Source: Nitrososphaerota archaeon (GTDB lineage Archaea; Thermoproteota; EX4484-205; JAAOZP01). From it: a DNA stretch of 64,000 nucleotides. The notes below the pieces were generated by a model, which was given only the letters and a program-made list of their open reading frames with translations, was not told the DNA's origin and searched no databases. The translations under genes and the position numbers were made by a program. The first letter of the stretch is position 1. Each line of letters begins with the position of its first letter. The DNA lies in assembly GCA_011605725.1 (NCBI GenBank), contig JAAOZP010000012.1:160001-224000 (forward strand). Reading direction: 5' to 3'. Shown one piece after another: positions 15,883 to 58,797 of the stretch.

Positions 15883-15948
15883 GCAAAAGCGTCCTGACGA
15901 GGAGGAATAAAAAGTTATTCCGTGCCCGAGAGCGATTCTAGGCGCGCG

Positions 15949-16020
15949 CTGCATATTATTTCCATTGAACCCAGGTATGGGCTTCTCGAGCAAGTGTATA
16001 GGAAGATCGTTGGGTGTTGA
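15949..16020 (+). pseudogene. Probable C-terminal remnant of an ABC transporter ATP-binding gene
   Basis: Reads LHIISIEPRYGLLEQVYRKIVGC*, like the LEEVY..IV tail of ABC-2 ATPases; ends 5 nt before the permease ATG at 16026; begins at the end of a GCGCGCGC tract. Confidence 0.55.
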
Positions 16021-16820
16021 AAAAAATGAGTCGGTTGGGATCTTTGATTAGAATGGAGATCGTAAGGCTATTAAAGTTCCCAGTGTTAGAGCTGATAACT
16101 ATAGCAGCGATATTTTTTGCATTAAGCAGCGCCTTAAACTTCGATTACCCTAGTGTTACTCGCTTTTCAGACGAATTAAGTCCAAGTACATTATGGCAAG
16201 ACCAGCTTAACAGGTTCATGAAAAATCTTGTGTGGCGGCATCTGGCCCCATATTTCGGCTCCTATAACTATGTGGCTTTCATCTATGCCGCTTTAACAGC
16301 CATGATTGCTGGAGACCTTTCGTCGGGACATATGGCGCTGATATTTTCTCAACCTTTCAAGAGAAGCGAGATATTTATGGTCAGGGCCGGCCTAACCTTT
16401 CTGGTTCCCTTAGTAGTGTATCTACTGGCCAATTCAGCAATAATCTTGATTGTAGGAGGCTTAAGCTGCTTCCTTGCAAACCCGGGATACACTCAAATCT
16501 GCTACAGCCTTGCTACCACATCTTTTCTCTATGTATTCTCAGTATGCCTCTCCTTGACATTAATAGTTAAAGAGACGATCCCAAGCTTCATATCTTCCCT
16601 AATGTTTCTATACGGTATTGATTACGCTGCAAGGATATTTCAAGAAAAATGGGTTAGAATCTTAATACCTAATACTGCCCTAACTGATTTCTGGTTTGCA
16701 CTAGGCTCCCCCTTGCTTGAAGAAAGTCCGCCATGGTCCTCTCTATTAACGCCTATGGCGATCTCGATTGCCCTCATAGCAGTTTGTTACCTTTACTTCA
16801 CTAGGGAGCTTGAGGTTTGA
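16014..16820 (+). CDS. ABC-2 type transporter permease
   Basis: About 6 TM segments; IAGDLSSGHMALIFSQPFKRSEIF signature; start may be ATG 16026. Confidence 0.8.
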   Translation: MLKKMSRLGSLIRMEIVRLLKFPVLELITIAAIFFALSSALNFDYPSVTRFSDELSPSTLWQDQLNRFMKNLVWRHLAPYFGSYNYVAFIYAALTAMIAGDLSSGHMALIFSQPFKRSEIFMVRAGLTFLVPLVVYLLANSAIILIVGGLSCFLANPGYTQICYSLATTSFLYVFSVCLSLTLIVKETIPSFISSLMFLYGIDYAARIFQEKWVRILIPNTALTDFWFALGSPLLEESPPWSSLLTPMAISIALIAVCYLYFTRELEV

Positions 16821-17311
16821 ACTACTTAGCTAAAAGGCTAGGCGTTACTCTTATCATAGCCGGGTTAACCATAATAATTGCTTGTATCTCTACGAGTGGA
16901 GAACAAGTTAGGAAGGAGAACATATTGATAGGTGTAAATAAAACAGCAGCTTTATCATACTATCTGCATGATAACGATGTTGAATTTGTGATTGAAATAA
17001 TCCCATCAAGGGCTAAGGCAGATATACTGCTCCTGGATGCTGAACAACTTAAGTCAGCCATCCAAGTGGCTGATTTAAAACCACTTGTTGAGCTTAAAAA
17101 TGTAGATAATGCTGATTTCAAGCTCGAACACAAGAGGGGTCTCTATTTCCTGTTCATAGTGAATAGGTCTGAAGAAGGCATATCAGCGTATATTACACGA
17201 ATATCCAGCGGAGTTCAACAGGATATAGTCTGCATAGGTATTGGAACTATTATTTTAGGGCTTGCATGCCTGATTACAGCAAAACTAGTTAAAAATAAAA
17301 ATGCAGGATAA
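16817..17311 (+). CDS. Membrane protein with N- and C-terminal TM helices and a beta-rich loop domain
   Basis: Hydrophobic ends; TTGA overlap with the permease stop. Confidence 0.65.
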   Translation: MNYLAKRLGVTLIIAGLTIIIACISTSGEQVRKENILIGVNKTAALSYYLHDNDVEFVIEIIPSRAKADILLLDAEQLKSAIQVADLKPLVELKNVDNADFKLEHKRGLYFLFIVNRSEEGISAYITRISSGVQQDIVCIGIGTIILGLACLITAKLVKNKNAG

Positions 17312-17626
17312 CCAACTGAATAAAATTAGTGAGGAACATTAGAGGGATCTATGACTGCAACTTACTGTTTTGCTTAAGCCGCGCGTGCGTCACCGGCTTC
17401 TAGAAATAGTAAGATACTGTTGATGGAAGAGGGCTCTTGAGGGAGCAGAGTTATAAGGAGCTTGGGTTTTAACCCTGCTTGATGCAACAGCTATGAGTTG
17501 CCTTCTGAGCCTGATTTGTGACGACTAGAGAGAAAAGAGCTGTTGTTTTTAAATGACGGCGCAGAACCGCTAACCCATTTTAAGTAATTCTTGGCACGCA
17601 ACACCATGCGTGGACTTGCACGATTT

Positions 17627-19378
17627 TCAGAATGGGAGGAGGAACTCGACTACTGGACATTTCTCCATACATGTTTCACACCCTTTACACCTGGTTTCAT
17701 CCACGTGAACCTTCCCATCCCGGTTAAGGAACAATGCTTCGTGCGGGCACCAAGCCTCGCAGGAACCGCATCCTAAGCAGTATGCTGCTCTGAGAACAAT
17801 GCTAATCATTTTTCTATTCTTGTTTTCCAACTTGAACACCACCTTGTTTCCGTTTAATACATATGATGCTGCAGGATGCCCCAGGGTTTTCACGAGTTCC
17901 CTTAAACTGTCCTCATCTATTTCCCTGTCTAAAACCAGGCATGTGGCAACTCCATCGTCTTTCACCACGTATTTTTCAAGGCGGCGGCTATGGACCTCTC
18001 CAACAACCTTCTTCATCTTTACCGGGACCCGTTTCCATCTCCACAAGTGATATTTTAGTGACAGCAAGTCTTTATCCGAGATATGCTTAAGAATTTCTCG
18101 TCTGAATTCACTCCAGAGATCAGGATGGATTTTCTCTAAAAGCAGGTAGTCCCCTATGCTGCAGGAGGGACATGGGTAACACCCTATCCTGTCAAACCCG
18201 TAGAAATAAGCCTTGTTCACTAGGTTGAGAACTCCTCGATACAGCAAGTACAGCCATACGGTCAACATATCCCAATCGTTTATGGGAGAGGCAGAGATTG
18301 ATTCTGGAATCCATTGGTTCCGCCACACGCTTCCAGCTCTAGCTCTTTTTCTAGACTCCAGCGCCCTCTGCCCCACGAAGGTCAAGCTGCCTCCGGGGAA
18401 TGCTCTCCTGTAGAGCCGTGCAGTCGGAATAAGCTTTATAACTTTACAGCACCATCTGTAGTCTCTCGAAGGTAATCTGAAAACATTCAAACCCTTCCAG
18501 AAACCATCGTAAGCATCAACCGTTAAAAGCTCTAGGCCAAGGCTGTCAGCCACCTTTTTCACGTTTTCCACGGTTTCAGGAAGCTCTATTCCAGTGTTTG
18601 TAAACGAGACCTTGGGTTTTACTCCGGCTTTCAGAACCAGAAGCAGCGTTGCTAAACTGTCTTTCCCGCCGGAGTATGAGACACAAGTGGGCTTTCTAAT
18701 CCTGTTTAAAAGCCTGAGGATGAACACGATAGCTCTAGACTCCCTTCTTCTCAAATATTCCAAGTTAGATTTCAACACGTCCTCTAAACCAGATGGTTTA
18801 GTCTCCTCCTCATTCAGAATTGGCTGGAAAGTCTTTACTACTCTTGCTTCTCCATTACCCGTTAGTTGAGCAACCCCGTAAACACCTTTTTCACCAAATA
18901 CTGGCAGATACCTTGCTTCAAGTGGAAGATTTAACCCGGTGATTTTCAAACCACCTCCTTTTTTAACACCCTCTTTGAAAAACCCTATGCCAAGGTTTTT
19001 AAAAATCCTTAAACAACCGTATTCAACAGGCTTGAAAACCCAGTCGTAAATATAGACGTCGAAGAAGAAGTGGCCGATCAGCCTTCCGTCGGAGATTATC
19101 TCGTAAGCCTGATCAACGTAGAAAAGCTTGTTTGCAAGCATAAGATGACCATCATACAGTACTTTCCCTCCTGCTCCCGAACCATACTGTTTATCAAGAA
19201 CCTCCAAGATCAGTTTTCTCTCTTCCTCGAAAACAGGTCTTAAGTCAGTCCTCCCCCTTGTTTTCAAATAAAAACCCTTGTCTCCACACACGTCACACTT
19301 CTCCCCGAGGAGCGGCACGTTGCAGATGCTGCACCATCTTACTGAGGTTTTCAAATGCTTCAACCCCGGATGCACCAT
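17627..19378 (-). CDS. PAPS/APS-reductase-family protein with N-terminal Zn ribbon and C-terminal 2x[4Fe-4S] ferredoxin domain
   Basis: WCSICNVPL..CDVCG, SYSGGKDS, RWCCKVIK, RIGCYPCP, CLGCGSCEAWCP, CKGCETCMEKCP. Confidence 0.88.
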   Translation of the reverse strand: MVHPGLKHLKTSVRWCSICNVPLLGEKCDVCGDKGFYLKTRGRTDLRPVFEEERKLILEVLDKQYGSGAGGKVLYDGHLMLANKLFYVDQAYEIISDGRLIGHFFFDVYIYDWVFKPVEYGCLRIFKNLGIGFFKEGVKKGGGLKITGLNLPLEARYLPVFGEKGVYGVAQLTGNGEARVVKTFQPILNEEETKPSGLEDVLKSNLEYLRRRESRAIVFILRLLNRIRKPTCVSYSGGKDSLATLLLVLKAGVKPKVSFTNTGIELPETVENVKKVADSLGLELLTVDAYDGFWKGLNVFRLPSRDYRWCCKVIKLIPTARLYRRAFPGGSLTFVGQRALESRKRARAGSVWRNQWIPESISASPINDWDMLTVWLYLLYRGVLNLVNKAYFYGFDRIGCYPCPSCSIGDYLLLEKIHPDLWSEFRREILKHISDKDLLSLKYHLWRWKRVPVKMKKVVGEVHSRRLEKYVVKDDGVATCLVLDREIDEDSLRELVKTLGHPAASYVLNGNKVVFKLENKNRKMISIVLRAAYCLGCGSCEAWCPHEALFLNRDGKVHVDETRCKGCETCMEKCPVVEFLLPF

Positions 19379-19402
19379 ATCACGGTTCTACACTGTTAAA
19401 AC

Positions 19403-21784: not shown

Positions 21785-21886
21785 ACCGAAGTATTCAAAA
21801 GACTTAAATTAAAGTTTTACCAGTTTTTTCGATCCTCTGAAACAGCTTTCTGGAAAGGCTTAAAATCCAGGTGCAGTTTTAAAACT

Positions 21887-22924
21887 ATGCCTAAAGAGTT
21901 ACTTGCCGTAGGTCCTAGAGAACCTGCACTCCTGGAGTATGAGGAAAGGCCGCTCAAAAAAGGCGAGATCCGTATAAGGAGCATCTTCTCAGCTGAGAAG
22001 CACGGTACGACTCTGCTTCTTTACAGAGGGGAAGCACCCTTCCTGAACAAGTATTATGATCAGGAACGCATGCTTTTCCTTAATAGGGCGGATGAAAAAT
22101 CCTATTTCCCTTTCCCTCTTGGAAACATGACTGTCGGAATTGTTGAGGAGGTTTCTCCAGAGGCTAGAAGGTTTAAAGTTGGCGACAGGGTTTACGGCTA
22201 TCTCCCAATAAGAGAAACACATACTGTCTACGAGCAAAACGTCATGCCTGCTCCAGAAGGCGTTAGTGATGAAGAGCTTGTATGCGTCGACCCCGCAGTG
22301 GTCGCGCTCATGGCGGTTAGGGAGGGACATGTAAGACTTGGAGATAAAGTTGCAATCTTCGGGATGGGAGCAATAGGGCTTTTAACGCTGCAGATGTGTA
22401 AAATATCCGGTAGCCTATGCGTCATCGCTGTGGAACCCGTTGAAAAGAAGCGGAGCCTTGCCGAGAAGTTTGGAGCAGACTACGTGATTGACCCTACTTC
22501 TGAAGACGCAGGGACGAGGATTAGGGAGTTAACAAATTGGAAAGGAGTAGATGTTTCGCTTGAGATCAGTGGAAGTTGTCAAGCGTTACACCAAGCTATT
22601 AGGGCAACAAGATACGGTGGGAAAGTGATTCCTGTTTCATGGTACCACGGTGAGGCTAAAAGCCTTTATCTTGGCGAAGAATTCCACTTTAACCGGATAA
22701 CGCTGTTATCTGGAGCTCGTGTCGAAAGCGAGCCTTACAGAGAGCATCCCCTTTGGAACAGGGAGAGGGTTTACGCGACTGTGACAGAGCTTTTCATAAG
22801 AAAGAAGATTAGTGTTGAAGGAATAATTGACCCGGTTGTGAAGTTTAGCCAAGTGGTTGAAGCTTACAGGAAGATGGATGAGCAGCCGTGGGAATGCGTG
22901 AAGCTAGGAGTAACTTATTCTTAG
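21887..22924 (+). CDS. MDR-family (alcohol/sugar) dehydrogenase
   Basis: SAEKHGT, FGMGAIG Rossmann motif, GVDVSLEISG; ORF 5' extension overlapping GH31 discarded. Confidence 0.85.
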   Translation: MPKELLAVGPREPALLEYEERPLKKGEIRIRSIFSAEKHGTTLLLYRGEAPFLNKYYDQERMLFLNRADEKSYFPFPLGNMTVGIVEEVSPEARRFKVGDRVYGYLPIRETHTVYEQNVMPAPEGVSDEELVCVDPAVVALMAVREGHVRLGDKVAIFGMGAIGLLTLQMCKISGSLCVIAVEPVEKKRSLAEKFGADYVIDPTSEDAGTRIRELTNWKGVDVSLEISGSCQALHQAIRATRYGGKVIPVSWYHGEAKSLYLGEEFHFNRITLLSGARVESEPYREHPLWNRERVYATVTELFIRKKISVEGIIDPVVKFSQVVEAYRKMDEQPWECVKLGVTYS

Positions 22925-23102
22925 AGTCGATTCGACAAGCGGCTCCAGCTTCGCAAGATGGTTGAGTAAGTGCAATATCTTCTTTCTTAAATCCGTTGAA
23001 AAGCCTTTAACCCTTTTCTCAATCCGTCAGGGACGTGCTCTAGGCGGCATACCACCGCTAAAGATTTATCTCAGGATTTTGCAGAGTAAATATTGAAGAA
23101 AA

Positions 23103-24512: not shown

Positions 24513-24657
24513 GCGTAGCGCACACTCAAAAATTGATTCTTTCTGCTTAAAACCCTAACATGGCTAGTTAAACACTTGAAAGTAGCATGTTATTGCAACC
24601 CTTAAGCCCATATGGAAAAGCATAAAAACCATATCAATAACCACACATATTGTCCGC

Positions 24658-25392
24658 ATGGCTTATCAGGATAAGAAGAGCTTCGCGCTATACCAAGTAT
24701 ACGGGCAAATAATGATATTGGTACTCGCAGCTTTAAACACCTACTATCCTCAATACCTAACTTATACTTTCATAGCGTTTCTAGTAGTCTCAATGATCTT
24801 CACGTTTTCTAGAATGAGGTCTCAGCTGAAAGGCTCGTCACCCGAACAGCTTAAGGAGATAAGGGAAAGCAAAAAAATCTATGAGGAGGAAAGCAGCGAA
24901 GTTTCGAGACTTATAGCCTTAGATGCGCAACTTACTCAAGAAATGAAGCCCCTAGCAGTCTCCTCCCTACTATCTATTTTCGCAATAGCAGCTATACTGA
25001 TCTGGTATCAAGTGTATTTCAGTTTCGCAAGCAGCCTGACAGGCGACTCATCCTTAAACACTTTTAAATTCCCGATCTTTCTGGCCGGCTACGAGGTGCC
25101 CTACGCGTTAATGGCAGTAATAAGCTTCAGACAGAACAGGGCGTTGAAAAAGTTCGCCCAGATCCCTCGAAGCTATGCTCTTTTCGAACGAGGGCTGGTT
25201 GCTCAAGGAATAGTCATAAAGACCCCTATGGATAACTATGAGGTCAAGCTTGACTCGAAGAGGAAATTCGTAGAACTAGTCAGTAAAGACGAGAAGAAGC
25301 CGCAACGGGTTAGGCTTTATAGTTCACAGCCAGGCGAGCTTTTCAGGCTGATTAACACGCATTGTTTTTCCACATTGAAAAACACGGAGTAA
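24658..25392 (+). CDS. Archaeal membrane protein (DUF2208-like)
   Basis: Four TM segments and C-terminal DSKRKFVEL...RLYS. Confidence 0.65.
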   Translation: MAYQDKKSFALYQVYGQIMILVLAALNTYYPQYLTYTFIAFLVVSMIFTFSRMRSQLKGSSPEQLKEIRESKKIYEEESSEVSRLIALDAQLTQEMKPLAVSSLLSIFAIAAILIWYQVYFSFASSLTGDSSLNTFKFPIFLAGYEVPYALMAVISFRQNRALKKFAQIPRSYALFERGLVAQGIVIKTPMDNYEVKLDSKRKFVELVSKDEKKPQRVRLYSSQPGELFRLINTHCFSTLKNTE

Positions 25393-25502
25393 AAACGTTA
25401 AACAGAACTGTGCATTCAGAAGTACTCAGGCTTTCCTCGAGCGTTCCATGAAAAACACGGTTTTGAAAACTTTTTAACAGGGTAACTACTATCAGAGCGT
25501 AA

Positions 25503-26627
25503 ATGGAAGAAACAAGCGCACGTGAAAGATTTAAAGAAACATTTACCTTCGGCAAGCCTGACAGAGTCTTTTTCATGCCGCACTGGTTTTGGAGCTCCAC
25601 CATAAAACGCTGGCATTCAGAAGGTTTGCCGCAGGACGTGTATGTCGACGAGTTCTTCGGATTCGACCGTTACGAGCTTGTTCCCGTGAATCTTGGCTTC
25701 ATACCGCCATTTGAATACGAAGTTTATTACGAGAATGAGGAATACAAGGTTTACAGGAGGCAGGACGGATGTAAGGTAAAAGAGTTTAAAAGATACGCGG
25801 AGGCAAGCATGCCCCATTGGCTTGAATATCCGATTAAAACCAGGATCGACTGGGAAAGGGAAGTTATGCCGAGGCTCAACTCTAAGTCTCCAGCAAGATA
25901 CCCATTATGGTGGGACGATTACGTGCGATGGGTTAAAGAGAGAGATTACCCACTTGGAATCTCCGCGGGAAGCTACTATGGATGGATAAGGAACTGGATG
26001 GGGGTTGAAAGGCTCTCCAGGCTTATATACGAGGACCCGGAGTTTATCAAGGAGATTGCAGATTACATAGCTGGTTTCGTGATAGAAACAATTAGAAGAG
26101 CTGTTGAAGAAATAGAACTGGATTTCGCGATAATTTGGGAAGACATGGCTATGAAAACCGGTCCTCTCGTTTCTCCTAGGAAGTTTAAAGAACTCATGGT
26201 TCCTGCTTGCAAAAAAGTCTGTGACTATCTGCATTCAAACGGTGTTCAAATAATACTGCTTGACTCAGACGGGTTCATAGACCAGCTTATACCCATCTGG
26301 CTTGACGCGGGAGTAACTGGCGTCTACCCGCTGGAGGTTGCCGCAGGAGAAAACGTGGTCGCACTTAGGAAAAAGTATGGGAAAAAGCTTGCCATGTTTG
26401 GAGGAGTTGATAAGAGAGTCTTGGCCAGAGGCTGCGACGAGATAGAGAGACACCTATTCCAAGAAGTGAAACTACCATGGATGTTGACACAGGGAGGATA
26501 CACGCCGATGATAGATCATTCTGTACCACCGGACGTGAGCCTAAGAAACTTCATGCATTACTGGAGCATTGTGAAGAATGTCGCAGAAGATCCTTTTAGA
26601 TACTTGGATAAGTGTGAGGAGGCTTAG
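25503..26627 (+). CDS. UroD/MtaA-like family protein
   Basis: SARERF..KPDR, WEDMAMKTGPLVSP, LDSDG, PLEVAAG, GGVDKR, IDHSVPPDVS. Confidence 0.88.
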   Translation: MEETSARERFKETFTFGKPDRVFFMPHWFWSSTIKRWHSEGLPQDVYVDEFFGFDRYELVPVNLGFIPPFEYEVYYENEEYKVYRRQDGCKVKEFKRYAEASMPHWLEYPIKTRIDWEREVMPRLNSKSPARYPLWWDDYVRWVKERDYPLGISAGSYYGWIRNWMGVERLSRLIYEDPEFIKEIADYIAGFVIETIRRAVEEIELDFAIIWEDMAMKTGPLVSPRKFKELMVPACKKVCDYLHSNGVQIILLDSDGFIDQLIPIWLDAGVTGVYPLEVAAGENVVALRKKYGKKLAMFGGVDKRVLARGCDEIERHLFQEVKLPWMLTQGGYTPMIDHSVPPDVSLRNFMHYWSIVKNVAEDPFRYLDKCEEA

Positions 26628-26631
26628 AAGC

Positions 26632-27693
26632 ATGAATGCCAGGGAAAAATTTGTTCAAGCGTTAAGGTTCAAAGAAACATCTGAAATACCTTTTCCATGC
26701 ATGTTCTACAAGTTCCACCCTGAAACTTTGAAAAGATGGCAGAGGGAAGGATTGTCTAAAGACGTGCATCTGATTGAGCATCTCGACCTAGAGAGATGCG
26801 AGCTTATTCCGGTAGACATGGGGCCATTACCGAATTACGAGGCTGTCGGTCTTGAACAGATAGAGGAGTGGAGGCTAGGAGTAGACAGATCATTATCAGC
26901 CTCCTTAACAATCGAGGCGAAAAGAGTTGAAGAAGAGTTTCCCATAAGAAACCCGAGGGATTATGAGAGTTTTAAAAGAATCCTGAATCCAAACTCCCCT
27001 GCTAGGTATCCGAGGTTTTGGGATGATTATGTACGTAGGGTTAAAGAAAGGGATTATCCGCTGGGTGTTTGCTTGGGAAGCCCGCTCAGTTGGCTGGTCG
27101 AATGGATAGGTTTGAAGGGTATTGCCTCCAGTTTAAAAACAGACCCATCCTGGATCATAAGCATCATAGACTACTTGACAAACTTCATCATATCTACAGT
27201 CAAAAGGGCGGTGCACGACTTATCACTCGATTTCGCAATCTTCATCGAGCCTAGGATGTACAGGCTCACGTGTATAGCAGATATCGATTTCATTATTGAT
27301 ATTTGTGAAAAAGCATATGGCCCTATCGTGAGCTGGATCAAGAATACAGATATCGACCTTGTAGGAATCGATTCGCAAGGACATGTGCATGAATTAACTG
27401 ATGCTTGGACCAAGATCGGTATCAACTTCATGTCGATCGAAAGCAGCGGTGGAGGAGACCTTGAATGGATCAGGAAAACCCTGAACAACAGGGTTGCCGT
27501 CATAGGGAACATCGACCGCAGAGTGCTGGCGTGGAGCAAGAGAGATATAATGGATGAGGTCCTTAGGAAAGCATCGTTCTTCAAACAAGGCGGTTACATC
27601 CCTGCTCCAGATGGGATTATACTGCCGGATGTACCTTGGGAGAACTTTACATACTTCATCAAAATCCTTAAACAAACGAGTATTATCGCGTAA
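26632..27693 (+). CDS. UroD-like paralogue with degenerate active-site motifs
   Basis: Shares SPARYP.(F/W)WDDYVR.VKERDYPLG with the upstream gene; GAGGAGG RBS before ATG 26632. Confidence 0.8.
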   Translation: MNAREKFVQALRFKETSEIPFPCMFYKFHPETLKRWQREGLSKDVHLIEHLDLERCELIPVDMGPLPNYEAVGLEQIEEWRLGVDRSLSASLTIEAKRVEEEFPIRNPRDYESFKRILNPNSPARYPRFWDDYVRRVKERDYPLGVCLGSPLSWLVEWIGLKGIASSLKTDPSWIISIIDYLTNFIISTVKRAVHDLSLDFAIFIEPRMYRLTCIADIDFIIDICEKAYGPIVSWIKNTDIDLVGIDSQGHVHELTDAWTKIGINFMSIESSGGGDLEWIRKTLNNRVAVIGNIDRRVLAWSKRDIMDEVLRKASFFKQGGYIPAPDGIILPDVPWENFTYFIKILKQTSIIA

Positions 27694-27891
27694 AACCATT
27701 CGCCAGCGCTTCAAGAATCAGCAATCACGTAAAAACTAATCAGCGTTCTCTTTAGGGATTTAATCGCGAATAATTCTGGAAATCTAAAAACGACTTTCCA
27801 TCGATTCGTTTACAGGAGAAATACCCTTTGCATCTTGTTTGACCCAACGATTCTTTAAATCCTAAAACTTTTTCTACCGACCAGTAGGGGA

Positions 27892-30339
27892 ATGTCTGAA
27901 AAAATGGTTAAGGAAAAAACAAGAATATACGTGATTGGAAACTCGCATATAGACCCAATCTGGTTATGGAGCTGGCAGGAAGGTTATAGAGTTGTAAGAT
28001 CCACTTTCAAAAATGTTTTAGATTTAATGAACGAGTTTAAGTTCTTCGTATTCACAGCCTCCTCCGCAGCTTTCTACGAATGGATTGAGACATGTGAACC
28101 AGAAATGTTCAGCGAGATAGCGAAGAGAATTAGGGAGAAGCGTTGGGCAATCGTTGGGGGATGGATAGTTGAGCCGGATTGCAACATACCTGGTGGAGAG
28201 AGCTTTGTCCGCCATGCCCTATATGGACAGAGATATTTTAAAAAGAAGTTCGGAGTCGCTGCTGTCACAGGCTACAACGTAGATTCCTTCGGGCACAACG
28301 GCATGCTTCCCCAAATCCTGAGCAAATGCGGATTGAAGAACTATGTTTTTATGCGTCCAGGGTTGTTTGAGAACAAAAATATTCCGGAGAATGCCTTCTG
28401 GTGGGAGGGCTACGACGGGTCAAGAGTACTTTGCTACAGGCTTCCTCTACCATATTGTACGGATGGCGGAGACATAACTGACCGAATAGATGAGACGATC
28501 AGAACAGTCAAGCCTCCCTTAAGGGAGGCGATGTGCTTCTACGGCAGGGGAGACCATGGGGGCGGACCAACTAGAGAAAACATATTGAGTATTCTGGCAA
28601 GAAAGATGAGAAATGATGTAGAGATCCTATTCAGTTCTCCAGACGAGTTTTTCAGTGCATTAAGGAGGAGGAAGCTACGGTTGCCAGTTTTTCGCGGCGA
28701 AATGCAGCATCATGCAAGAGGTTGCTACTCGGTTCACTCTGAGGTTAAGAGAAACAATCGTAAGGCAGAAGAATTACTTTGTACGGCTGAGAAGATTGCT
28801 TCCATAGCGTATTTGCTCGCGGGGATAGAATACCCGCAAAAAGAGCTGACTGAAGCTTGGAAAAGCCTGTTGTTCACACAGTTCCACGACGCATTAGGCG
28901 GCACATCAATACCTGAGGCATACGAAGACGTTCGAAACATTCATGGCGAGGTGTTAAACAAAGGGAGTAGGATCCTAAACAGTGCTATTCAAGCCCTAGC
29001 CTCAAAAATAGACACGGAGGGAGAGGGTATTCCTATAATAGTTTTCAACCCGCATTCGTGGGACGTAGCTTTCCCGGTTGAGGTTGAAGATGCCGACGGA
29101 GAGGGTGGCCTGATGGATGAAAAAGGCCAAGCCATACCCTTGCAACGTGTAAAATCTTCGGCGAACGTTGGAGACTGGAGACAGAGAATAGTCTTTATCG
29201 CAGACGTCCCTGCCCTAGGTTACAGGGTATATCGTAACGTTAGCAGTAGGAGCAGCGTGACCCCTGCTTCTGGAGAACTCATAGCTTCAGATAACACTCT
29301 TGAAAACGAGTACATTCGTTTAGAAATCGACTCGACCAACGGCTATATTAAGCGGCTCTACGATAAGAAGAACGGAGTTGAAGTATTCAGCAGAGACTCC
29401 TGCATTCCGGTTGTTGTCGACGACCATAGCGATACCTGGGGCCACGGGGTTGATAGGTTTAGAAACGATATTGGAGCCTTTGGAAACGCTAAGGTAAAGC
29501 TTGTTGAAAACGGGCCGGTGCGCGCCACTATAATGGTTGAAAGCAGCTATAACAAGTCTTTTATTCGCATGTACGTCTCAATATACAGGGGCCTGCCCTA
29601 TGTAGAACTGAAGTTTTCGTTGAACTGGAATGAGCAACATAAAATGCTTAAACTAAGTTTTTCAGTAAATATTGACCAGCCAGTGTTAACCTCCTCGATT
29701 CCATATGGATGGGTTACGCGCTCCCGTAACGGTGAAGAAGAACCGATGTATAAATGGGTGGACATGACTGGGAAGGCAGTAGGCACCAGTGGCGAAAGCA
29801 GAACCTATGGGCTCAGCATATGTAACGATTGTAAATATAGCTATGATGCTAATGGTTCAGAAATACGGATAACAATCCTGCGGAGCCCACCCTACGCGCA
29901 TCATCAGCCGTATAAGCTGGATCCGAAAATAGCCTATAACTATATTGATCAAGGATGGCAAGAATTCAGCCTAATGCTTATACCGCATAACGGCTCATGG
30001 AAAGAAGCACACACCATAAGGCTTTCGGAGGAATTGAACTCTAAACCGATAGTTTTTGTCGAATACTCTCACAAGGGTACCTTGCCCAAATGCTGGTCTT
30101 TGATGAGTGTTAACCGGGATAATGTAATCGTCAGCGTGCTTAAAAAGCATGAGGATTCGGAGAACCTTGTGGCACGTTGCTGTGAAACGAATGGGGAAGA
30201 GACGGAGGCTAGAATCAGCCTGCCCGCTATCGGCAGAAGGTTAAAGATTAGGTTTAAGCCTTTCGAGATAAAGACACTCCTAATACCTAGGGCAACCGGA
30301 AGAGTGAAGGAGCTCGATATGCTTGAATTCTCCCGCTGA
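27892..30339 (+). CDS. GH38 alpha-mannosidase
   Basis: GNSHIDPIWLW, VEPDCNIPGGESFVR, NVDSFGH, GDHGGGP, QFHDALGG. Confidence 0.94.
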   Translation: MSEKMVKEKTRIYVIGNSHIDPIWLWSWQEGYRVVRSTFKNVLDLMNEFKFFVFTASSAAFYEWIETCEPEMFSEIAKRIREKRWAIVGGWIVEPDCNIPGGESFVRHALYGQRYFKKKFGVAAVTGYNVDSFGHNGMLPQILSKCGLKNYVFMRPGLFENKNIPENAFWWEGYDGSRVLCYRLPLPYCTDGGDITDRIDETIRTVKPPLREAMCFYGRGDHGGGPTRENILSILARKMRNDVEILFSSPDEFFSALRRRKLRLPVFRGEMQHHARGCYSVHSEVKRNNRKAEELLCTAEKIASIAYLLAGIEYPQKELTEAWKSLLFTQFHDALGGTSIPEAYEDVRNIHGEVLNKGSRILNSAIQALASKIDTEGEGIPIIVFNPHSWDVAFPVEVEDADGEGGLMDEKGQAIPLQRVKSSANVGDWRQRIVFIADVPALGYRVYRNVSSRSSVTPASGELIASDNTLENEYIRLEIDSTNGYIKRLYDKKNGVEVFSRDSCIPVVVDDHSDTWGHGVDRFRNDIGAFGNAKVKLVENGPVRATIMVESSYNKSFIRMYVSIYRGLPYVELKFSLNWNEQHKMLKLSFSVNIDQPVLTSSIPYGWVTRSRNGEEEPMYKWVDMTGKAVGTSGESRTYGLSICNDCKYSYDANGSEIRITILRSPPYAHHQPYKLDPKIAYNYIDQGWQEFSLMLIPHNGSWKEAHTIRLSEELNSKPIVFVEYSHKGTLPKCWSLMSVNRDNVIVSVLKKHEDSENLVARCCETNGEETEARISLPAIGRRLKIRFKPFEIKTLLIPRATGRVKELDMLEFSR

Positions 30340-44983: not shown

Positions 44984-45022
44984 TTTTCACCTCAAACTGT
45001 TAAGGTGGCGCTTTAAAAGTTT

Positions 45023-48672: not shown

Positions 48673-48686
48673 AAACCCTTTAAATA
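48673..48686 (+). promoter_or_regulatory. BRE/TATA box
   Basis: AAACCC-TTTAAATA, 23 nt before ATG 48710 (leaderless-type spacing). Confidence 0.6.
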
Positions 48687-48709
48687 GGCAGGAAAACCGT
48701 TAGATAACT

Positions 48710-49675: not shown

Positions 49676-49686
49676 ACAGCGATAAC

Positions 49687-51804: not shown

Positions 51805-51895
51805 ACTCTCGTGCTAAGCTTTTGAAATATTAAACCTTTTCCAGAACAATCGGCTGCAAAAACTTATATTTCAACAGCTGGCGTTATGGGGAGAG

Positions 51896-53017
51896 ATGCT
51901 GCCTGCTGAAAGGCTTGACGCCGCGTTTGAAGGCAAGTATTCAGATGCAATACCGTGGTTTGCTGACCTTACTTACTGGTATCACTCGCACGAGGAAATG
52001 GGAACCTTGCCTACTAGGTATAGGGGCGAGGGAAGAATAAACCTTTACATGGACATGGGTTGTGGTGCGCATGAAGAGCTCTACCGACCAGTTTTCAGGA
52101 TAAAGCGTAGACAGGTGGAAATCAATGTTTACGAGACCAAGGATCATGACGGAAGCATTGTCAGGCACGAAGTTTTTCAAACACCGGTAGGAGAGTTGAG
52201 ACGAGTAAGTAAACACTCATTCAAATCCCACAGTACTGCGACTATAGAGCACCCCGTTAAAACAGAGAGAGACTTAAAGGTCCTGAGATTCATATTGAGA
52301 GACCAGATTGTAGAGAAGGATCCTGAGATTTACGAATGGCAGTCGCGAGCGATGCAGAAATGGAATGGATGGGGAATTGTAAGCTCTCTACCACCGAGAA
52401 CACCGTTGATGAGGATGATAGTGGAATGGGCCGGCTTCTCAAACACTGTAAAACTCCAGTGGAGGTCTAGAGAAGAGTTTGACGAGACAATTCAAGTCAT
52501 GTGCGAGGCGGATGACCCAGTTTATGAAGCAGTCTCAGAAGCACCCGCCAAGTATGTTTATTTCGGGGAAAACCTTTCTAGCGACATGGTTAGTCCACGT
52601 CTTTTCAAAACCTACTTGGAACCCTACTACAGGAAGCGTTCTCTTGAGCTTCACTCTAAAGGGAAGAAGATTTACCTACATATAGATGGTAGCCTTAGAG
52701 GGTTGTTGCCGTTGCTTGCTCAAACCGGCATAGACTGTGCACAATCGCTTACACCAGCGCCGGCAGGCGACGTCGACGTTAAGGATTTTAGGAGGCTCGC
52801 TGGCAATAGCATAGTACTATGGGGAGGATTACCAGGTGTTCTATTCAGTGAAAAATATCCCGTTGAAATGTTGAGACGGATTCTTGAAGACATAATAGAA
52901 ACATATATAAATGATTATAAGTTTATAATAGGAGTTGCTGACCAGGTGCCACCGGATGGAGAGATAGACAGGGTGAAAATGGTTAGCGAGATAGTGAATT
53001 CCAAGGGCAGAAGATAA
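51896..53017 (+). CDS. UroD/MtaA-like family protein
   Basis: TPVGEL, EHPVKT, GENLSSDMVSP, LHIDG, LTPAPAGD, WGGLP, VADQVPP. Confidence 0.82.
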   Translation: MLPAERLDAAFEGKYSDAIPWFADLTYWYHSHEEMGTLPTRYRGEGRINLYMDMGCGAHEELYRPVFRIKRRQVEINVYETKDHDGSIVRHEVFQTPVGELRRVSKHSFKSHSTATIEHPVKTERDLKVLRFILRDQIVEKDPEIYEWQSRAMQKWNGWGIVSSLPPRTPLMRMIVEWAGFSNTVKLQWRSREEFDETIQVMCEADDPVYEAVSEAPAKYVYFGENLSSDMVSPRLFKTYLEPYYRKRSLELHSKGKKIYLHIDGSLRGLLPLLAQTGIDCAQSLTPAPAGDVDVKDFRRLAGNSIVLWGGLPGVLFSEKYPVEMLRRILEDIIETYINDYKFIIGVADQVPPDGEIDRVKMVSEIVNSKGRR

Positions 53018-53102
53018 GAAGGTTCAGAATAAGTGTTCACTCTAACGAGCCACCCACTATTACAAAAAATTTAAGTTCAGGATGATATGATTCTACAGAA
53101 AG

Positions 53103-54134
53103 TTGCCATCTAGGAGGCTTACAGTAGGGCTGGTCCTAATCACAGCTGGAATCACTCTTATATTAAGCTCCCTACTCGTGAAACCAGAGCATCCCGAGGA
53201 AGATCAATATGCCGCGTTAAGAAAGGTTAGGGTAGATTATGCGGAAAGGCAGAGCTGTACCTACTTCCTAGACCAGAGCATCCTCCTTAGAAACCCGTCT
53301 AGCGAGACCGTGGTTGATCTGGTCTATGTGTGGATTCCGGTTAACGAGAGCCACCAGTTCACGCGGTTCCTAAGTTCAACTCTAAAACCATTATTCATGA
53401 AAAGCGATGAGGAGGTTGCCATATTAGTTTATAATGTTAGCTTGACGGAAGGGGAAACGATGTGGCTTAATGTTACGCTCCTAGTAACCGTTGAAGGATA
53501 TAGACTTCTTATGGAGAACATCCCCTGGCTGAACCGTTCTCAGGTTGAGGAGAGCACCGGAGGAAAAGGGTATTGGGCCGTTGAAAACCGGACATACATT
53601 TTAGTAGCGAAAAACATAGGCTTAGATGCTAGGGATCCTGTTGAAGCATGCCGTATTGTTGGAGAATGGATACGCAGGAGGCTTCAATACGACGAGGGGC
53701 CGAGAAAGGGTGCTAACCATGCGTTAATTGAGATGGGTGGCGAGCTGTTTGTCAGGGGCGACTGTGAAGAGATTGCCGATGTATTCGTAACGCTCACGAG
53801 AATACTTGGAATACGTTCAAGAGTAGTACATGGCCTCCGTCTTCTCGGATACAGGGAAGGCTCTGTGACAATGTGGATTAAGAGGACAGAAAGAGGTTAC
53901 GAGTACTCTGAAAATTGGGGTGGACATGCCTGGTCGCAAATGTATCTTCCGCAAGCAGGATGGGTTGATTTTGAACTGGGTGCATATGACGTTAGAATAG
54001 GAGACCTCACTCCATATTACGTTAGGTACAGCTTTGAGGAAAAAGGCAACCTGGGTTCAAACGTGCCTTACTGTTTGACGAGAAATCTGGAGGCAGACCT
54101 CCTGTACTTCGTTTTTAGGTGGGTTCAGCCTTGA
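53103..54134 (+). CDS. Membrane-anchored transglutaminase-like (papain-fold) protein
   Basis: N-terminal TM; GDCEEIA, GIRSRVVHG, GHAWSQ..GWVDFE. Confidence 0.85.
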   Translation: MPSRRLTVGLVLITAGITLILSSLLVKPEHPEEDQYAALRKVRVDYAERQSCTYFLDQSILLRNPSSETVVDLVYVWIPVNESHQFTRFLSSTLKPLFMKSDEEVAILVYNVSLTEGETMWLNVTLLVTVEGYRLLMENIPWLNRSQVEESTGGKGYWAVENRTYILVAKNIGLDARDPVEACRIVGEWIRRRLQYDEGPRKGANHALIEMGGELFVRGDCEEIADVFVTLTRILGIRSRVVHGLRLLGYREGSVTMWIKRTERGYEYSENWGGHAWSQMYLPQAGWVDFELGAYDVRIGDLTPYYVRYSFEEKGNLGSNVPYCLTRNLEADLLYFVFRWVQP

Positions 54135-54964
54135 GGATTTTGAGGAAAACTCTCTTAATCATAATCTTAGCCTTGACAGCAGTACCAGCAGCATTCCTCA
54201 TCAAGCTTCAGCCGGATTACCATGTTGAGATCAACATGAAGACAGGGTTTGAAAGGATGGTGATGCTAAAATTTGACATATTCTTAAAAACTATAAGTAG
54301 CTCAGTTCCGCTTGATGAGAATGCCTACTGGCCAGTTGTTGCGGACTATTACAAACTACGGTACCCATCAGGCTGGATAGAAGCGATGAAACTCTTGTCC
54401 AGAGAGGACATTAGGCTGCTGAACTGCCCGGTTAATCCCCCTTGCGTCAAGCCTCCCTACGCCGTGAACGAGGCAGATGCTTCAGACAGCAGTGCTTTCA
54501 CACTCAGAACCCTAGGAGTTGCCCTTCCCAAAGCCTCTTCTAGGCTTAGGGCGAAGATTTATGAATCGAAGTTTCTCAATTCAACATCAACCCTCCTAGT
54601 TACTGTTATGAACACAGGGGACGATGAAGGAGTGTTCATAGTTATTCTTTTTGAGAAAAGCTTTGAACAGGCTAGGAAGGTAGACCTCAAGCCCAGCGAA
54701 AACGCTTCAGTAAGGTTTCCAGTGCACGTCCCCGAGGGAGAAGAGGTAGTGGTAAGGATCTTTGGAGGTGGAGAGCAGCTGGACGGGTGTAAGCTGACCA
54801 TCGGGATGAAGAAGCCCCCGAGCATCTTGCCACTAGTCTTGGGCGCGGTGGGAACAATTCCTATGCTTGTTGGAACCCTCGTAATACTCTCCCACTTTAT
54901 GGGTAAGTTTAGGAAACACGCTTCATTGCAAGAGGATGGCCCTGCTCCATATCCTCCAAGCTAA
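54131..54964 (+). CDS. Surface membrane protein with Ig/CARDB-like beta domain
   Basis: N- and C-terminal TM helices; VTVMNTGD..VDLKPSENASVRF; TTGA overlap with the upstream stop. Confidence 0.6.
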   Translation: MRILRKTLLIIILALTAVPAAFLIKLQPDYHVEINMKTGFERMVMLKFDIFLKTISSSVPLDENAYWPVVADYYKLRYPSGWIEAMKLLSREDIRLLNCPVNPPCVKPPYAVNEADASDSSAFTLRTLGVALPKASSRLRAKIYESKFLNSTSTLLVTVMNTGDDEGVFIVILFEKSFEQARKVDLKPSENASVRFPVHVPEGEEVVVRIFGGGEQLDGCKLTIGMKKPPSILPLVLGAVGTIPMLVGTLVILSHFMGKFRKHASLQEDGPAPYPPS

Positions 54965-55054
54965 ACGGATTGCAGCATGCGCTAATTATGAACAGCCTTA
55001 CCTAAAACCATAATTCTTATAAGGTAGTACAGCATTCCATTCGAATGATGCATA

Positions 55055-56107
55055 TTGGTCGATATAGTTGACGCTCCTCAAATCACTGACAATTTCATAA
55101 GGAAACTGTATGAGAGAACTAGGCCCTCTCTATCCTTCAAAGCCTCCACTAGAGAAGAGTTTTTAGAATGGAGGGAGAAACTAAAGAGTAAGATTAGAGA
55201 GCTTTTAGGGGAATTCCCTGAGCCCGCTGACTTAAATCCCCGTCTGCTTTCTAGAGAGGAGGCTGAGAAGTATGTTAGGGAGAAATGGATCATTCAATCT
55301 GAAGAGGACTGCTGGGTACCATTATACCTTTTAATCCCGAAGGGCTTCAAAGGAAAGCTTCCAGCAATTTTATGTGCACACGGCCATGGCGCATACGGTA
55401 AGGATTCAGTAGCAGGTGTTCATTTTAACGATCCGAATAGGAAGGCTGAGATTGAAAGGTTAAACTATAATTATGCGGAGCAGATGGCTAATGCTGGTTT
55501 CGTTACAATAGCTCCTGATTGGAGAAGTTTTGGTGAAAGAATAGCCTATTATAATCCATATCCCGGGAGGGATATATGCAACATTCATTTCCTCCAGCAC
55601 TTGATACTTGGGAGAACGCTTTTAGGAAGCAACATATTCGACGGCATGCGGGTAATAGACTTCCTAACCACATTAGAATATGTTGATCCCAACCGGATAG
55701 GATGCATGGGTCTATCCTTTGGAGGGACAATGACAACCTACCTGACGCTGCTCGACGAAAGGATAAAAGCAGCAGATATAATATGCTACGCAACCACTAC
55801 TGAGCACTACGCGATATCTAGGCCAAACTTCTGCGGGTCTCAGCTGGTTCCCAACCTTTACAAGTATGCTGACGTGCCCGATGTCATAGCCGCAATAGCT
55901 CCTAAGCCTCTCCTAATAGAGAGCGGAGCCTCCGATACTTGTTTCTGGATTCATTCCACCCTTAAAGCACACAACGTGATAAAAAGGGCCTACGAGGTCG
56001 CCGGGGAGCCGGAGAACCTCTGGATAGAAATCTTCCCGGGGGAACACAGCTTCTCTGGGAGAATGGCCTTCAGCTTCTTCAAAAAATACCTTAAATCTGG
56101 AAACTGA
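55055..56107 (+). CDS. Alpha/beta hydrolase (dienelactone hydrolase / carbohydrate esterase-like)
   Basis: PAILCAHGHG, PDWRSFGER, GCMGLSFGG nucleophile elbow, GEHSF. Confidence 0.88.
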   Translation: MVDIVDAPQITDNFIRKLYERTRPSLSFKASTREEFLEWREKLKSKIRELLGEFPEPADLNPRLLSREEAEKYVREKWIIQSEEDCWVPLYLLIPKGFKGKLPAILCAHGHGAYGKDSVAGVHFNDPNRKAEIERLNYNYAEQMANAGFVTIAPDWRSFGERIAYYNPYPGRDICNIHFLQHLILGRTLLGSNIFDGMRVIDFLTTLEYVDPNRIGCMGLSFGGTMTTYLTLLDERIKAADIICYATTTEHYAISRPNFCGSQLVPNLYKYADVPDVIAAIAPKPLLIESGASDTCFWIHSTLKAHNVIKRAYEVAGEPENLWIEIFPGEHSFSGRMAFSFFKKYLKSGN

Positions 56108-56201
56108 GGCGAATGGCTGTTAAAACTGAAAGCAAATGCCGCTTGGGATACGCAGAGTAAAAATTCTAACATTTAGTGAAGCTAACCATCCACGCGCGCG
56201 C

Positions 56202-56354
56202 CTTCCGAAGGAAGCGAGAGTAGTCTCCATGATAGCTGTAGGCTATTCTGGTGAGAAAAAGGAGCCCGTGTCAAACTGGAAATCCCTACAGGAGATCGTT
56301 GGATACAACCACTGGCAGCACAGGCTTTTTAAAATCTTAAGGAACCAGGCTTAA
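56202..56354 (+). pseudogene. C-terminal remnant of a nitroreductase gene
   Basis: LPKEARVVSMIAVGYSGEK..KSLQEIVGYNHW aligns by eye with IPEGLRVLCTVSVGYPDEK..RPLEEVTHWEKY of the intact gene at 63190-63708; starts directly after CGCGCGCGC. Confidence 0.7.
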
Positions 56355-57347
56355 TACTTCTGTGGATCTTAAAACCTCTTCTCCATGAAGATTAATGATT
56401 GAGTCAAAGTTCTCCCGGGTAACGTTCGTAGTTGTCCCGACTCCGGTTACGCACGCTGCGCCAGCAGCCTGCCCCGCCATTAAGATCCTCTTTAAATCCT
56501 CAAGAGGGATTTCCGACAGGCCTCCAAACATCCTATTCTTAAGCAGTGTGAATATTATTCCTGCGCTGAACGCGTCCCCGGCGCCAGTCGGGTCAACCAC
56601 TTCAACTTTAAAACCTTTCTGCCTTACGTATTTCCCATTCTTCAAAACAGCCAGCGCACCCTTTTCGCCGAGGGTTATGAAAGTAATGCCGTTAACCCTT
56701 TTACTCGCCTCCCTCATCCCATAGGCCAAACTATCTGTCTTGAATATGTTTTTCAGCTCTATGTCGTTACAGTGGAAAAAATCTGCGTAATCCAAATGCT
56801 CAACAATATAATCCCATTGCCTCCCATATGGCTCCACCATGTCGACGAACGTTAAGCTACCGGTCTTCTTCGCGGTTTTAAGAACCTCTCCAAGCCTTTC
56901 GTCGAATTCACCGCATAATCCGGACGCGGCGTAGAAAATCCGTGGTTTAACCTCAAGCACCTTCTTGGAGACGAAATCCGGGTCGAGATGCAGGCTTGCA
57001 CCCAGGTCCAGGTGGAACCTCCTGTCCTCACCTTTAACCACAAGCGCAATGTTTTTAGTCGTCCCCGTTTCAGCCAGCTCCATCAAGTGTGTGATAACCC
57101 CCTTCTCCTCTAAAACGCTTTTTATGAACCATCCGAAAACATCCCTGCCGATTGCCCCCACTATGCCGACAGAACCCTTTTCAAGGCCCAGCTGGATCAA
57201 ATCTATGGAAACGTTGCAGGGGTGGCCTCCAACAGTCAGCTTAACGCTTTTCTTAGCAAAAACTATGTGACCAGGATCCGCGATTTTAGGCAGTTCAGCC
57301 AGAATCATGTCGGCAACGATGAACCCTGAGGCGAGGACTTTCATCAA
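56337..57347 (-). CDS. PfkB-family carbohydrate kinase
   Basis: GGHPCNVS, GAIGRDVFG, ITLGEKG, VDPTGAGDAFSAG. Confidence 0.9.
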   Translation of the reverse strand: MMKVLASGFIVADMILAELPKIADPGHIVFAKKSVKLTVGGHPCNVSIDLIQLGLEKGSVGIVGAIGRDVFGWFIKSVLEEKGVITHLMELAETGTTKNIALVVKGEDRRFHLDLGASLHLDPDFVSKKVLEVKPRIFYAASGLCGEFDERLGEVLKTAKKTGSLTFVDMVEPYGRQWDYIVEHLDYADFFHCNDIELKNIFKTDSLAYGMREASKRVNGITFITLGEKGALAVLKNGKYVRQKGFKVEVVDPTGAGDAFSAGIIFTLLKNRMFGGLSEIPLEDLKRILMAGQAAGAACVTGVGTTTNVTRENFDSIINLHGEEVLRSTEVLSLVP

Positions 57348-57388
57348 GACAGATCATGGTTAAGAGTTTTTAATCTTTTCTAAACTTC

Positions 57389-58417
57389 CTAAACCCATTT
57401 CCTGAGGGTAGTATCCTCTGCAACAGACCTGTAGAAGCGCCTCATCCTTTCAATCAGCCTAGTAACCCTATCCCTGGAAAAACCTTTCTCAGAGTGAAGG
57501 AACTCCATCAACCATGCTTCGTCAAGCCCCGAGTACTTGACGGAATACTCTTTTTTAACATCAGGCTGCATGAATACTTTTCTGACCTCAGCGTAATTCT
57601 CCGGAGCCTTTGGAAGAATGCTTCTAGGGATTTCATCTATCCGCCCATACTTCTTAATAAGCTGCAGAGCCTTTTTAGGACCAATCCCCTTAACACCCTC
57701 GTTGAAATCAGTACCCACGAGAATAGCCACATCCACCAGCTGCTCCCTAGTGATGCCCAGCCTACCTAAGGCCTCTCCAGCCTCTATAAGCTCAGGCTTC
57801 AAGACTTTTAAATAGCCCTTGCTCGGGTAGAACTCGGTGCTACGTATAGCCAGGTTTCTAACAAGCCTGGGAGAACCGTAGAGCAAGGTATCATAGTCCC
57901 TACCTGCCACAGCATACGCCTCCCCCCTTTGAACGATAAAGGCCGCCTGAGCCTCAGCATCAGAAGGAGCCTCGACAAACGGAAGGCCCATTGCAGAAAG
58001 CAGGATCTTAGCGTCCTCGACCATCGCCGTCGTCAGCCTAGTGGAAGAAACAGCCTTGGAAAAGGCTTCTGCAAGCCTACCTTCTTTCAACGCTAGCCTC
58101 CACTCCGCCAAAGCCTTCTCCCTCCTGAGCTTCCTCTCCTCCAGCTCCCTCAGCTTAAGCTGAGCAGGCCTTCCGTCGAAGACGAATATGAACCTCATGC
58201 TGTAGTCACACAGTAGCCTTGTAACCCTGAAGGCGAAGCCTATCAGGTGAGAAGTAACGTTGCCCTCAGCATCCGTGAAGAACGTTCCGTCAGGCTTACG
58301 TATCAAAGCGAGAAACTGGTAGAGCATCTGGCTAGCGTCAACAGCGAAGCTTTTCCCTCTAAGGCTTTCAAGACTCGTCGGTTTCCTGCTGATTATGGGT
58401 GTTAAATTAACCCCCAT
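57389..58417 (-). CDS. fen: Flap endonuclease 1
   Basis: MGV start, LYQFL..IR..DG, TSHL, VFDG, APSDAEAQAA, DYD, GTDFN.GVKGIGPKKA. Confidence 0.93.
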   Translation of the reverse strand: MGVNLTPIISRKPTSLESLRGKSFAVDASQMLYQFLALIRKPDGTFFTDAEGNVTSHLIGFAFRVTRLLCDYSMRFIFVFDGRPAQLKLRELEERKLRREKALAEWRLALKEGRLAEAFSKAVSSTRLTTAMVEDAKILLSAMGLPFVEAPSDAEAQAAFIVQRGEAYAVAGRDYDTLLYGSPRLVRNLAIRSTEFYPSKGYLKVLKPELIEAGEALGRLGITREQLVDVAILVGTDFNEGVKGIGPKKALQLIKKYGRIDEIPRSILPKAPENYAEVRKVFMQPDVKKEYSVKYSGLDEAWLMEFLHSEKGFSRDRVTRLIERMRRFYRSVAEDTTLRKWV

Positions 58418-58509
58418 CCGAACCTACACCAAGTATTGCTAAAGTCCGAGTAACGTTTATGGTTTTCTGAACATATTCCTAATCTGAATAAAGGCTGTTC
58501 CGCGCGCGC

Positions 58510-58797
58510 TCGGTGAACGTGTCTGGGTTGCTCAGCTTACTGGATGCGAAGTACGTGTTTAAACAGTGGGTCGGTTTCTTCAATTCTACGGAAAGCTCGG
58601 CGCGCGCGAGCCGAGGCTGGAGACGAGCCATGTACTCTGAGGACTACATGAGCATGATGATCACGGTGGCTGTTATGTCCCTAGTGATAATCGCAGCCAT
58701 CGTCGTATTCTTATGTAGAAGAAGGAAAAAGATTCCTTCCCTGCCACCTTCGCCGCCTCCGCCAACTCCTCCGTCGCATTCCACATCTTTTACATAA
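58510..58797 (+). pseudogene. Probable C-terminal remnant of an archaeal cell-surface protein (TM anchor, basic stretch, Pro-rich tail)
   Basis: GLLSLLDAKYVFKQWVG..EDY-TM-RRRKK-PPSPPPP; no plausible N-terminus; (CG)n tracts at its start and internally. Confidence 0.5.

Follow-up and report, generated by a model that had tools for sequence, protein, structure and literature searches.

The window analysed here is a stretch of 64,000 nucleotides from the genome of a Nitrososphaerota archaeon (G000:C1:160001-224000), and the parent genome, G000, comprises 2.23 Mb in 20 contigs with 46% GC and a completeness of 93%; an encoded XPG/FEN-1 flap endonuclease marks it as archaeal. Four runs of alternating C and G were found in this window, at 15942-15949, 56193-56201, 58501-58509 and 58600-58608; as the initial annotation had claimed, they were the sole alternating C/G runs of at least 8 nt in the window, and all four lay outside intact genes. 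The window was aligned to relatives of the same genus, and 399 kb (18%) of the sister species G002 entered the comparison at an identity of 90-95%. The relatives in the comparison were uncultured Thermoproteota, every genome used being a metagenome-assembled genome (MAG), and open reading frames (ORFs) were called crudely as the longest frames of at least 100 aa.

Alternating CG tracts at the breakpoints of the window

All four tracts coincided with homology breakpoints against G002, and the homology to each relative stopped exactly at them. Between identical flanks the relatives carried 24 bp to 5.65 kb where the window carried 8-11 nt of alternating CG, and the proposed signature of deletion or repair junctions was thus borne out; the tracts are called scars below. 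The sequence CGCGCGCG matched the window three times against 0.23 expected from dinucleotide-preserving shuffles, and three or more matches were seen in 0/100 shuffles. The tracts and the features that they border are as follows.

15942-15949, no strand: scar GCGCGCGC, left border of a swapped segment
15950-16887, plus strand: 938-bp segment, G000 only among the genus genomes searched, with an unrelated 556 bp in G002
16014-16820, inside the 938-bp segment: 268-aa multi-pass membrane ORF without a Pfam match
17380-17390, no strand: no scar, ordinary sequence of chance resemblance, collinear with G002 with point changes only
56192-56201, no strand: scar aCGCGCGCGC in place of about 504-506 bp, with 1-2 nt of shared border bases
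56202-56354, plus strand: nitroreductase orphan, C-terminal 50 codons, in frame with the full G002 gene
58499-58509, no strand: scar tcCGCGCGCGC in place of 5.65 kb (5,651-5,655 bp in G002:C4)
58510-58599, plus strand: native PKD-gene fragment of about 90 bp, flanked by two scars, 92% identity to G002:C4:92735-92826
58600-58608, no strand: scar (g)CGCGCGCG, 24 bp replaced
58609-58797, plus strand: C-terminal membrane-anchor remnant of a PKD surface protein (BLASTP against the G002 590-aa protein, E 5e-20)
60472-60477, no strand: short scar A-GCGCGC-TA, left border of a replacement of 239 bp (G000) versus 942 bp (G002)

At the 15942 site, G002, G008 and G010 read ...ctaggcgc|tggag, with about 4 nt (GCGC) extra in G000, and the homology ended within the tract, at position 15945 for these three genomes and at 15943 for G023. 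The 24-codon open frame following 15949 is plausibly the C-terminal tail of an ABC ATPase. The 56193 joint of G000 reads ...aaccatcc-ACGCGCGC-gccttcc..., and the same flanks were present in G002, G008 and G023, where the nitroreductase gene is intact; the segment lost from G000 held its promoter and first ~150 codons, and the remnant at 56202-56354 is the orphan 3' end that had been predicted behind this tract. G006 was collinear at the 56193 break. The orphan end predicted behind the 58501 tract was recovered as well, since the tail at 58513-58797 matched the C-terminus of the G002 590-aa PKD protein, and the lost DNA encodes a 1,352-aa CARDB/Big_7/Peptidase_C25 protein together with the first ~505 aa of that PKD protein. 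At the 58600 site, ...gctcgg-24 bp-agccgag... was shared by G002 and G024. The alignment with G024 showed an extra 2-nt deletion about 20 nt 3' of this scar (58609-58640), giving a net change of -18 nt with the frame kept; the common frame of the anchor remnant and the ~90-bp fragment may be accidental, the product of a single complex event, or kept by selection acting on the remnant. Through its scars the window has lost a nitroreductase and two large surface proteins.

Weaker tracts in decayed spacers had also been proposed at two positions. The one at 60472-60477 stood on a homology break, the homology to G002:C4 stopping at 60473, and was retained; the one at 17380-17390 differed from G002 by point changes only and was discarded. 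In all, nine real breakpoints were found between the window and G002, of which five carried a G000 scar, one carried two G002 scars and one carried a decayed candidate. Two further G000 segments, at 25373-27901 and 53014-55046, are matched by about 130 bp instead in G002 and carry two URO-D-like genes, and a transglutaminase-like gene with a 281-aa ORF. Their borders are scar-free in both genomes, and thus not all structural differences take the scar route.

A recent, lineage-specific class of palindromic scars

The genome-wide count of CG tracts that the initial annotation had called for yielded 201 runs of at least 8 nt in G000, far above chance. The word GCGCGCGC had 229 occurrences where base composition predicts about 19, with GCGC itself being under-represented. 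The consensus was the palindrome tA-GCGCGCGC-Ta, with A at -1 in 78% and T at +1 in 76% of the runs and no conservation of the flanks past +/-2. Among the 8-mer runs, 119 started with G and 12 with C, and 88 of the 119 were flanked by A and T (A..T). The run-length spectrum was non-geometric, lesser peaks being observed at 10 (31 runs) and at 6 (162 versus 61). The most frequent 10-mer palindrome of G000 was AGCGCGCGCT, with 88 occurrences versus 2 for the reversed word.

It had been stated beforehand that tracts equally common in intact coding sequences would speak against a junction signature; instead they were rare in long ORFs, 75% of them lying outside such frames although long ORFs make up 87% of the genome. 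They were concentrated towards contig ends and in those bins where ORF coverage was low, and an open frame of at least 300 nt on both sides was present for 6 of 190 tracts versus 44% of random positions. When the tracts were removed in silico, either alone or with +2, 1+1 or 2+2 flanking bases, no ORFs were restored, and the tracts are therefore not simple insertions. No association was found between tract positions and the starts or stops of ORFs.

The anatomy seen in the window was repeated elsewhere in G000 and, reciprocally, in G002, where stretches of 19, 36, 504, 606, 949, 1167 and 8213 bp corresponded to 8-16 nt of (TA)GCGCGCGC(TA). The resolved joints all showed lost or swapped DNA, with 0 pure insertions. 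Only 2 of the 45 tracts with at least one placeable flank were collinear between G000 and G002, the partner being tract-free in both cases, versus 74% of random and 35% of random non-ORF control positions. A perfect tract was present at 12 of 50 collinear breakpoints, and several other breakpoints bore decayed tracts, such as TAGCGTGTGCT in place of 3,769 bp. The lost segments were mutually dissimilar and single-copy, and their ancestral borders shared 0-2 nt (9 joints).

The direction of change could also be read from these alignments. In the tract-less genome long ORFs cross the borders of the extra segment, and several outgroups share the tract-less state at the window sites; the tract allele is thus derived. 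The question whether a tract was pre-existing or inserted was answered by the intact alleles, which are tract-free at both borders, so that the tract is new, and full-length homologues of the downstream segments do exist for the nitroreductase and PKD remnants. Not one canonical scar was common to G000 and G002 in 286 kb of alignment, in which 2-3 possible decayed ones were seen, and hence nearly all perfect scars are younger than the split of the two species. The scar process is recent and lineage-specific. Within the genus, the ratio of AGCGCGCGCT to the reversed word was 118:1 in G023, 70:1 in G002, 33:1 in G008 and 32:1 in G007, with 0 occurrences in seven other species; in unrelated lineages of the phylum it was 22:0 in G105, which is a one-contig genome, 30:0 in G142, 35:1 in G389, 14:1 in G395 and 10:1 in G363.

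In G023:C14 (L040:580-1270), two GCGCGCGC tracts enclose 675 bp within the counterpart of the PAPS reductase gene of the window (17627-19378). A BLAST comparison of this stretch with the corresponding 1.4 kb of the window gave no match, and either the capture of a fragment or the divergence of a remnant may account for it.

Proposed joining of broken ends and competing explanations

A new, sequence-defined and self-complementary filler is located exactly at joints with lost or swapped DNA. It is very probable that the tracts are de novo filler left at the joints of broken DNA, those of the window being five of about 200 recent scars. Among the four mechanisms that the initial annotation had listed, polymerase-added CG repeats, or joining via self-complementary CG, gave the best fit.

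In the proposed sequence of events, a break would be followed by the loss of 19 bp to more than 8 kb or by the capture of an unrelated fragment, and the joint would be sealed by [T]A-(GC)4-T[A]. Each 3' end would gain a short tail, (T)A-GCGC; because (GC)n is self-pairing, identical tails would let any two ends pair or abut, and fill-in and ligation would then produce the palindrome [T]A-(GC)n-T[A]. Cores of 6, 8 and 10 would arise from variable tail length or nibbling, corresponding to tails of 5+5, 6+6 and 7+7 nt including the TA. The A/T shoulders of a scar are often native already, which would mean that tail and flank can overlap by 1-2 nt. We infer that both ends are tailed; such two-sided tailing would explain the symmetry of the scars, and pieces lying between two scars, for example 58510-58599 and the 675 bp of G023, would fit it as well.

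Two classical routes were considered and rejected. Non-homologous end joining by Ku with LigD or PolX does not apply, because the Ku family PF02735 had no match in G000 (93% complete) and the PolX family PF14792 gave only a sub-threshold match of 17.5 bits there. Microhomology joining was set aside because the borders share 0-2 nt at the nine joints and 8-12 nt of filler are present at every joint.

Several observations do not sit easily with a filler origin. Two of the nine window breakpoints against G002 are without any scar, and the replacement border at 16887|16888 also has none, only the left side of that segment being scarred. The unshared scars require either a high recent rate or fast decay. 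The comparison with G002 covered 18% of that genome, with about 14 joints resolved to the base, and the joints are known from assembled sequence alone.

Among the other explanations, the footprint of a cut-and-paste element that targets TA and ends in GCGC, or the self-insertion of a minute mobile palindrome, was considered very improbable. A Tc1/mariner-type footprint is indeed called to mind by the flanking TA...TA and by a core that is even and symmetric (4+4, 5+5), and the tracts gather in variable regions and near contig ends; nevertheless, pure insertions are absent from the resolved joints, all of which have lost or swapped DNA, and excision in silico with or without the TA restores no frames. 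There is also no longer element, as the conservation ends at +/-2, and the flanking A or T is often native. The earlier suggestion of an excision footprint could not be upheld for the same reasons, the lost segments being unrelated, single-copy genes and no scar a pure insertion.

An artefact of assembly, scaffolding or library preparation, in which the tracts would stem from a linker or from gap filling, in vitro or in silico, was judged very improbable, and the decay of the tracts is central to that judgement. One-transition variants of AGCGCGCGCT numbered 68 versus 6 for a control word, 58 of the 68 lying outside long ORFs, while transversion variants showed no excess (23 versus 33 in the control); this transition-only halo indicates C-to-T decay in living DNA and not linkers. 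Further deletion joints bear decayed scars, core length is variable and the borders are nibbled, and the joints are local and co-oriented with losses down to 19-24 bp. The occurrence of scars among genomes follows the phylogeny, some genomes being scar-free, and the excess is present in the one-contig G105 too. On the other side, it can be reasoned that A-GCGCGCGC-T, at 10 nt, is the expected product of a self-annealing T-overhang linker joining A-tailed fragments, and, as a further point that counts against a biological origin, G002 and G008 share a co-assembly pipeline and G010, from another pipeline, is almost scar-free (3:1). The words TAGCGTGC/GCACGCTA and CGTGCGCT/AGCGCACG derive from the scar by one transition and rank with the 8-mers of G000 that most exceed a Markov model. 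Their excess suggests that C-to-T decay is rapid at these CpG runs, perhaps with a contribution from cytosine methylation.

We gave equally little credence to a selected functional palindrome, such as a HIP1-like word, a site for a dimeric regulator or a modification site, that would spread by mutation or conversion and prefer intergenic DNA. HIP1 (GCGATCGC) of cyanobacteria is found throughout coding DNA and is conserved. Like HIP1 and REP/BIME, the tracts are a short GC-rich palindrome that is strongly over-represented, and they are mainly intergenic with ~200 copies; unlike HIP1, they avoid ORFs, mark deletion joints and are unshared by sister species. They originate by the replacement of tens to thousands of bases and not by point change, their placement bears no relation to where ORFs start or stop, and their transition decay shows no sign of purifying selection. 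Finally, (CG)n is able to adopt Z-DNA and the native sequence at 15942 is already GGCGC, but the proposal that existing (CG)n tracts were fragile (Z-DNA, hairpins) or recombination sites at which deletions began is hardly tenable, since the intact alleles in G002, G008, G023, G024 and G000 are tract-free at both segment borders and seven species of the genus are without tracts.

De novo filler at broken ends is familiar from other systems: N-nucleotides (TdT, Pol mu), LigD additions and the templated insertions of Pol theta are random or copied from nearby DNA. The scars share with them the new bases exactly at the joint, the flanking loss and the occasional capture of a fragment, but differ in that one palindromic sequence is used at ~200 sites. 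A literature search for GCGCGCGC palindromes or GC-palindrome filler at archaeal deletion joints found none. The scars point to an undescribed mode of end joining with a fixed self-pairing patch. For the question of how most archaea rejoin broken chromosomes without Ku, these genomes would hold ~200 recent repair events each, recorded at base resolution and all with one self-pairing patch. The pathway is thereby open to direct tests: the scar provides a searchable event signature, a few candidate genes vary together with it, and sister species can be compared to measure how fast genes are lost through it. If the filler is written by an enzyme, this would be a new sequence-defined tailing activity on DNA ends, of interest to repair biology and as a tool.

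A second RadA, a primase-like gene and a hairpin RNA

The canonical PriS of G000 is encoded on contig C11, and a second primase-like gene of 260 aa lies at C7:379014-379793. Its product scored 31.5 bits against PF01896 (cut-off 26.8), and the nearest solved structures were those of Pyrococcus PriS (1G71 and 1V33, ~30 bits). The motifs DxD (D92-V-D94) and SGxRGFHxH (FSGxRGFHxHV) were invariant in six primase-like sequences. With motif I (DxD) and motif II (SGxGxH) both present, the candidate is assigned from its sequence to the AEP superfamily. It was rejected as the replicative PriS, because a separate canonical PriS exists and the candidate is confined to part of one genus. A search of the phylum sample at E 1e-20 gave no match to the family in the 373 other genomes, and no PF09250 Prim-Pol was found in G000.

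The primase-like gene always stands 3' of an extra full-length RadA, in G000 directly so. At least two RadA genes are present in G000, G002, G007 and G023, and the scar-poor G010 and G003 have the canonical copy only. The gene row at G000:C7:376638-380751 (L077:2638-6751) consists of a dinB-like gene (IMS family), the second RadA, the 260-aa primase-like gene, a HEPN gene and an MNT nucleotidyltransferase. At this position scar-poor G010 and G003 retain dinB alone, which gives the RadA-primase pair the look of an inserted module. Complete or fragmentary copies of the primase-like gene were found in 7 of the 8 scar-rich genomes of the genus and in none of the 9 scar-poor ones, G010 of the scar-rich subclade being among the latter. 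The RadA and primase-like module is the best candidate for the activity responsible for the scars, although its involvement is judged somewhat less likely than not.

This assignment has to be set against several results. Phylogeny confounds the association of scars with this enzyme and leaves about two independent contrasts; in G009, 16 scars and the hairpin RNA described below were present but no primase-like gene was found; and five unrelated scar-rich lineages (G142, G389, G105, G395 and G363) are without the primase-like family or the hairpin RNA, having yielded only ordinary PriS, one decayed fragment and RNA matches at chance level. A second AEP of G389 was rejected as a family member, being a contig-end copy of a Zn-knuckle PriS beside a glycosyltransferase with no RadA adjacent. 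A distant homologue in G019 (143 bits) was uninformative, as that genome has no scar excess (3:9).

A hairpin element was found in 13 copies in seven genomes of the genus (G000, G002, G023, G006, G007, G009 and G010), and in 6 of the 13 it comes immediately behind the stop codon of a primase-like gene, intact or decayed, an arrangement seen in one paralogue lineage; the G010 copy, a seventh, follows an apparent remnant of the 3' end of that gene. Its 9-bp stem was 95.5% paired, with three pairs changed on both sides, versus 27-50% in slid controls. A structured RNA associated with a polymerase gene, as looked for in a telomerase-like system, is therefore present. The single-stranded leader GCGCUAAAAAC (GCGCUA) shows complementarity to TAGCGC, a tail that, placed on both ends, would give exactly TAGCGCGCGCTA. 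That the hairpin RNA serves as a template appears rather doubtful, however: the leader match is 5-6 nt only and varies between the copies (GAGCGCUA, GCGCGCUA, CACGCU), the template motif is the last codon and stop of the protein in half of the copies (group 1), and the sole G000 hairpin copy adjoins a truncated paralogue on C12 and not the intact C7 gene. The possibility of an RNA located between the two module genes at G000:C7 was rejected, as the primase-like protein begins at the radA stop and leaves no room for one.

At G000:C12:18265-18941 a scar, a 139-bp radA fragment (91% to the C7 copy), a truncated and divergent primase-like paralogue (74% at the nucleotide level) and the hairpin RNA lie together. 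There, scar formation seems to have cut up and relocated genes of the candidate system itself.

A complete scheme, in which the second RadA, the small primase-family polymerase and the hairpin RNA with its GCGCUA template would write (T)A(GC)n on broken 3' ends for sealing, is on present evidence somewhat unlikely. The nearest published system to such joining is the PriSL-mediated end joining of Saccharolobus. There, PriSL(X) acts by terminal transferase activity, annealing for which two G:C pairs can suffice, and then extension, leaving mostly 1-2 bp indels and no fixed filler, and the enzyme is the replicative primase (PMC12019639). The candidate described here would likewise be an archaeal primase-family enzyme acting in joints at breaks without Ku; it differs in the fixed palindromic filler and in being an accessory 260-aa paralogue paired with a second RadA. 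In telomerase, including its de novo addition of repeats at breaks, and in the bacterial DRT10 (10.1101/2025.10.16.682844), a reverse transcriptase adds a defined repeat from an RNA, to cap or to defend. If the RNA lead holds, an own small RNA and a short defined repeat on 3' ends would be common to these systems and the present one, and the hairpin beside a single-stranded motif resembles the template boundary of telomerase; the candidate here is, in contrast, of the primase family and not a reverse transcriptase, and its product would join two ends. If true, the three-part system would amount to telomerase-like, sequence-independent end joining built on a primase, and through its action these archaea would rapidly lose genes and capture fragments.

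Next to the scarred surface-protein remnant of the window, a VapBC-like pair was found at 58883-59574, in which the ORF of a MazE/AbrB-type antitoxin (77 aa) overlaps that of a PIN-domain protein (153 aa).

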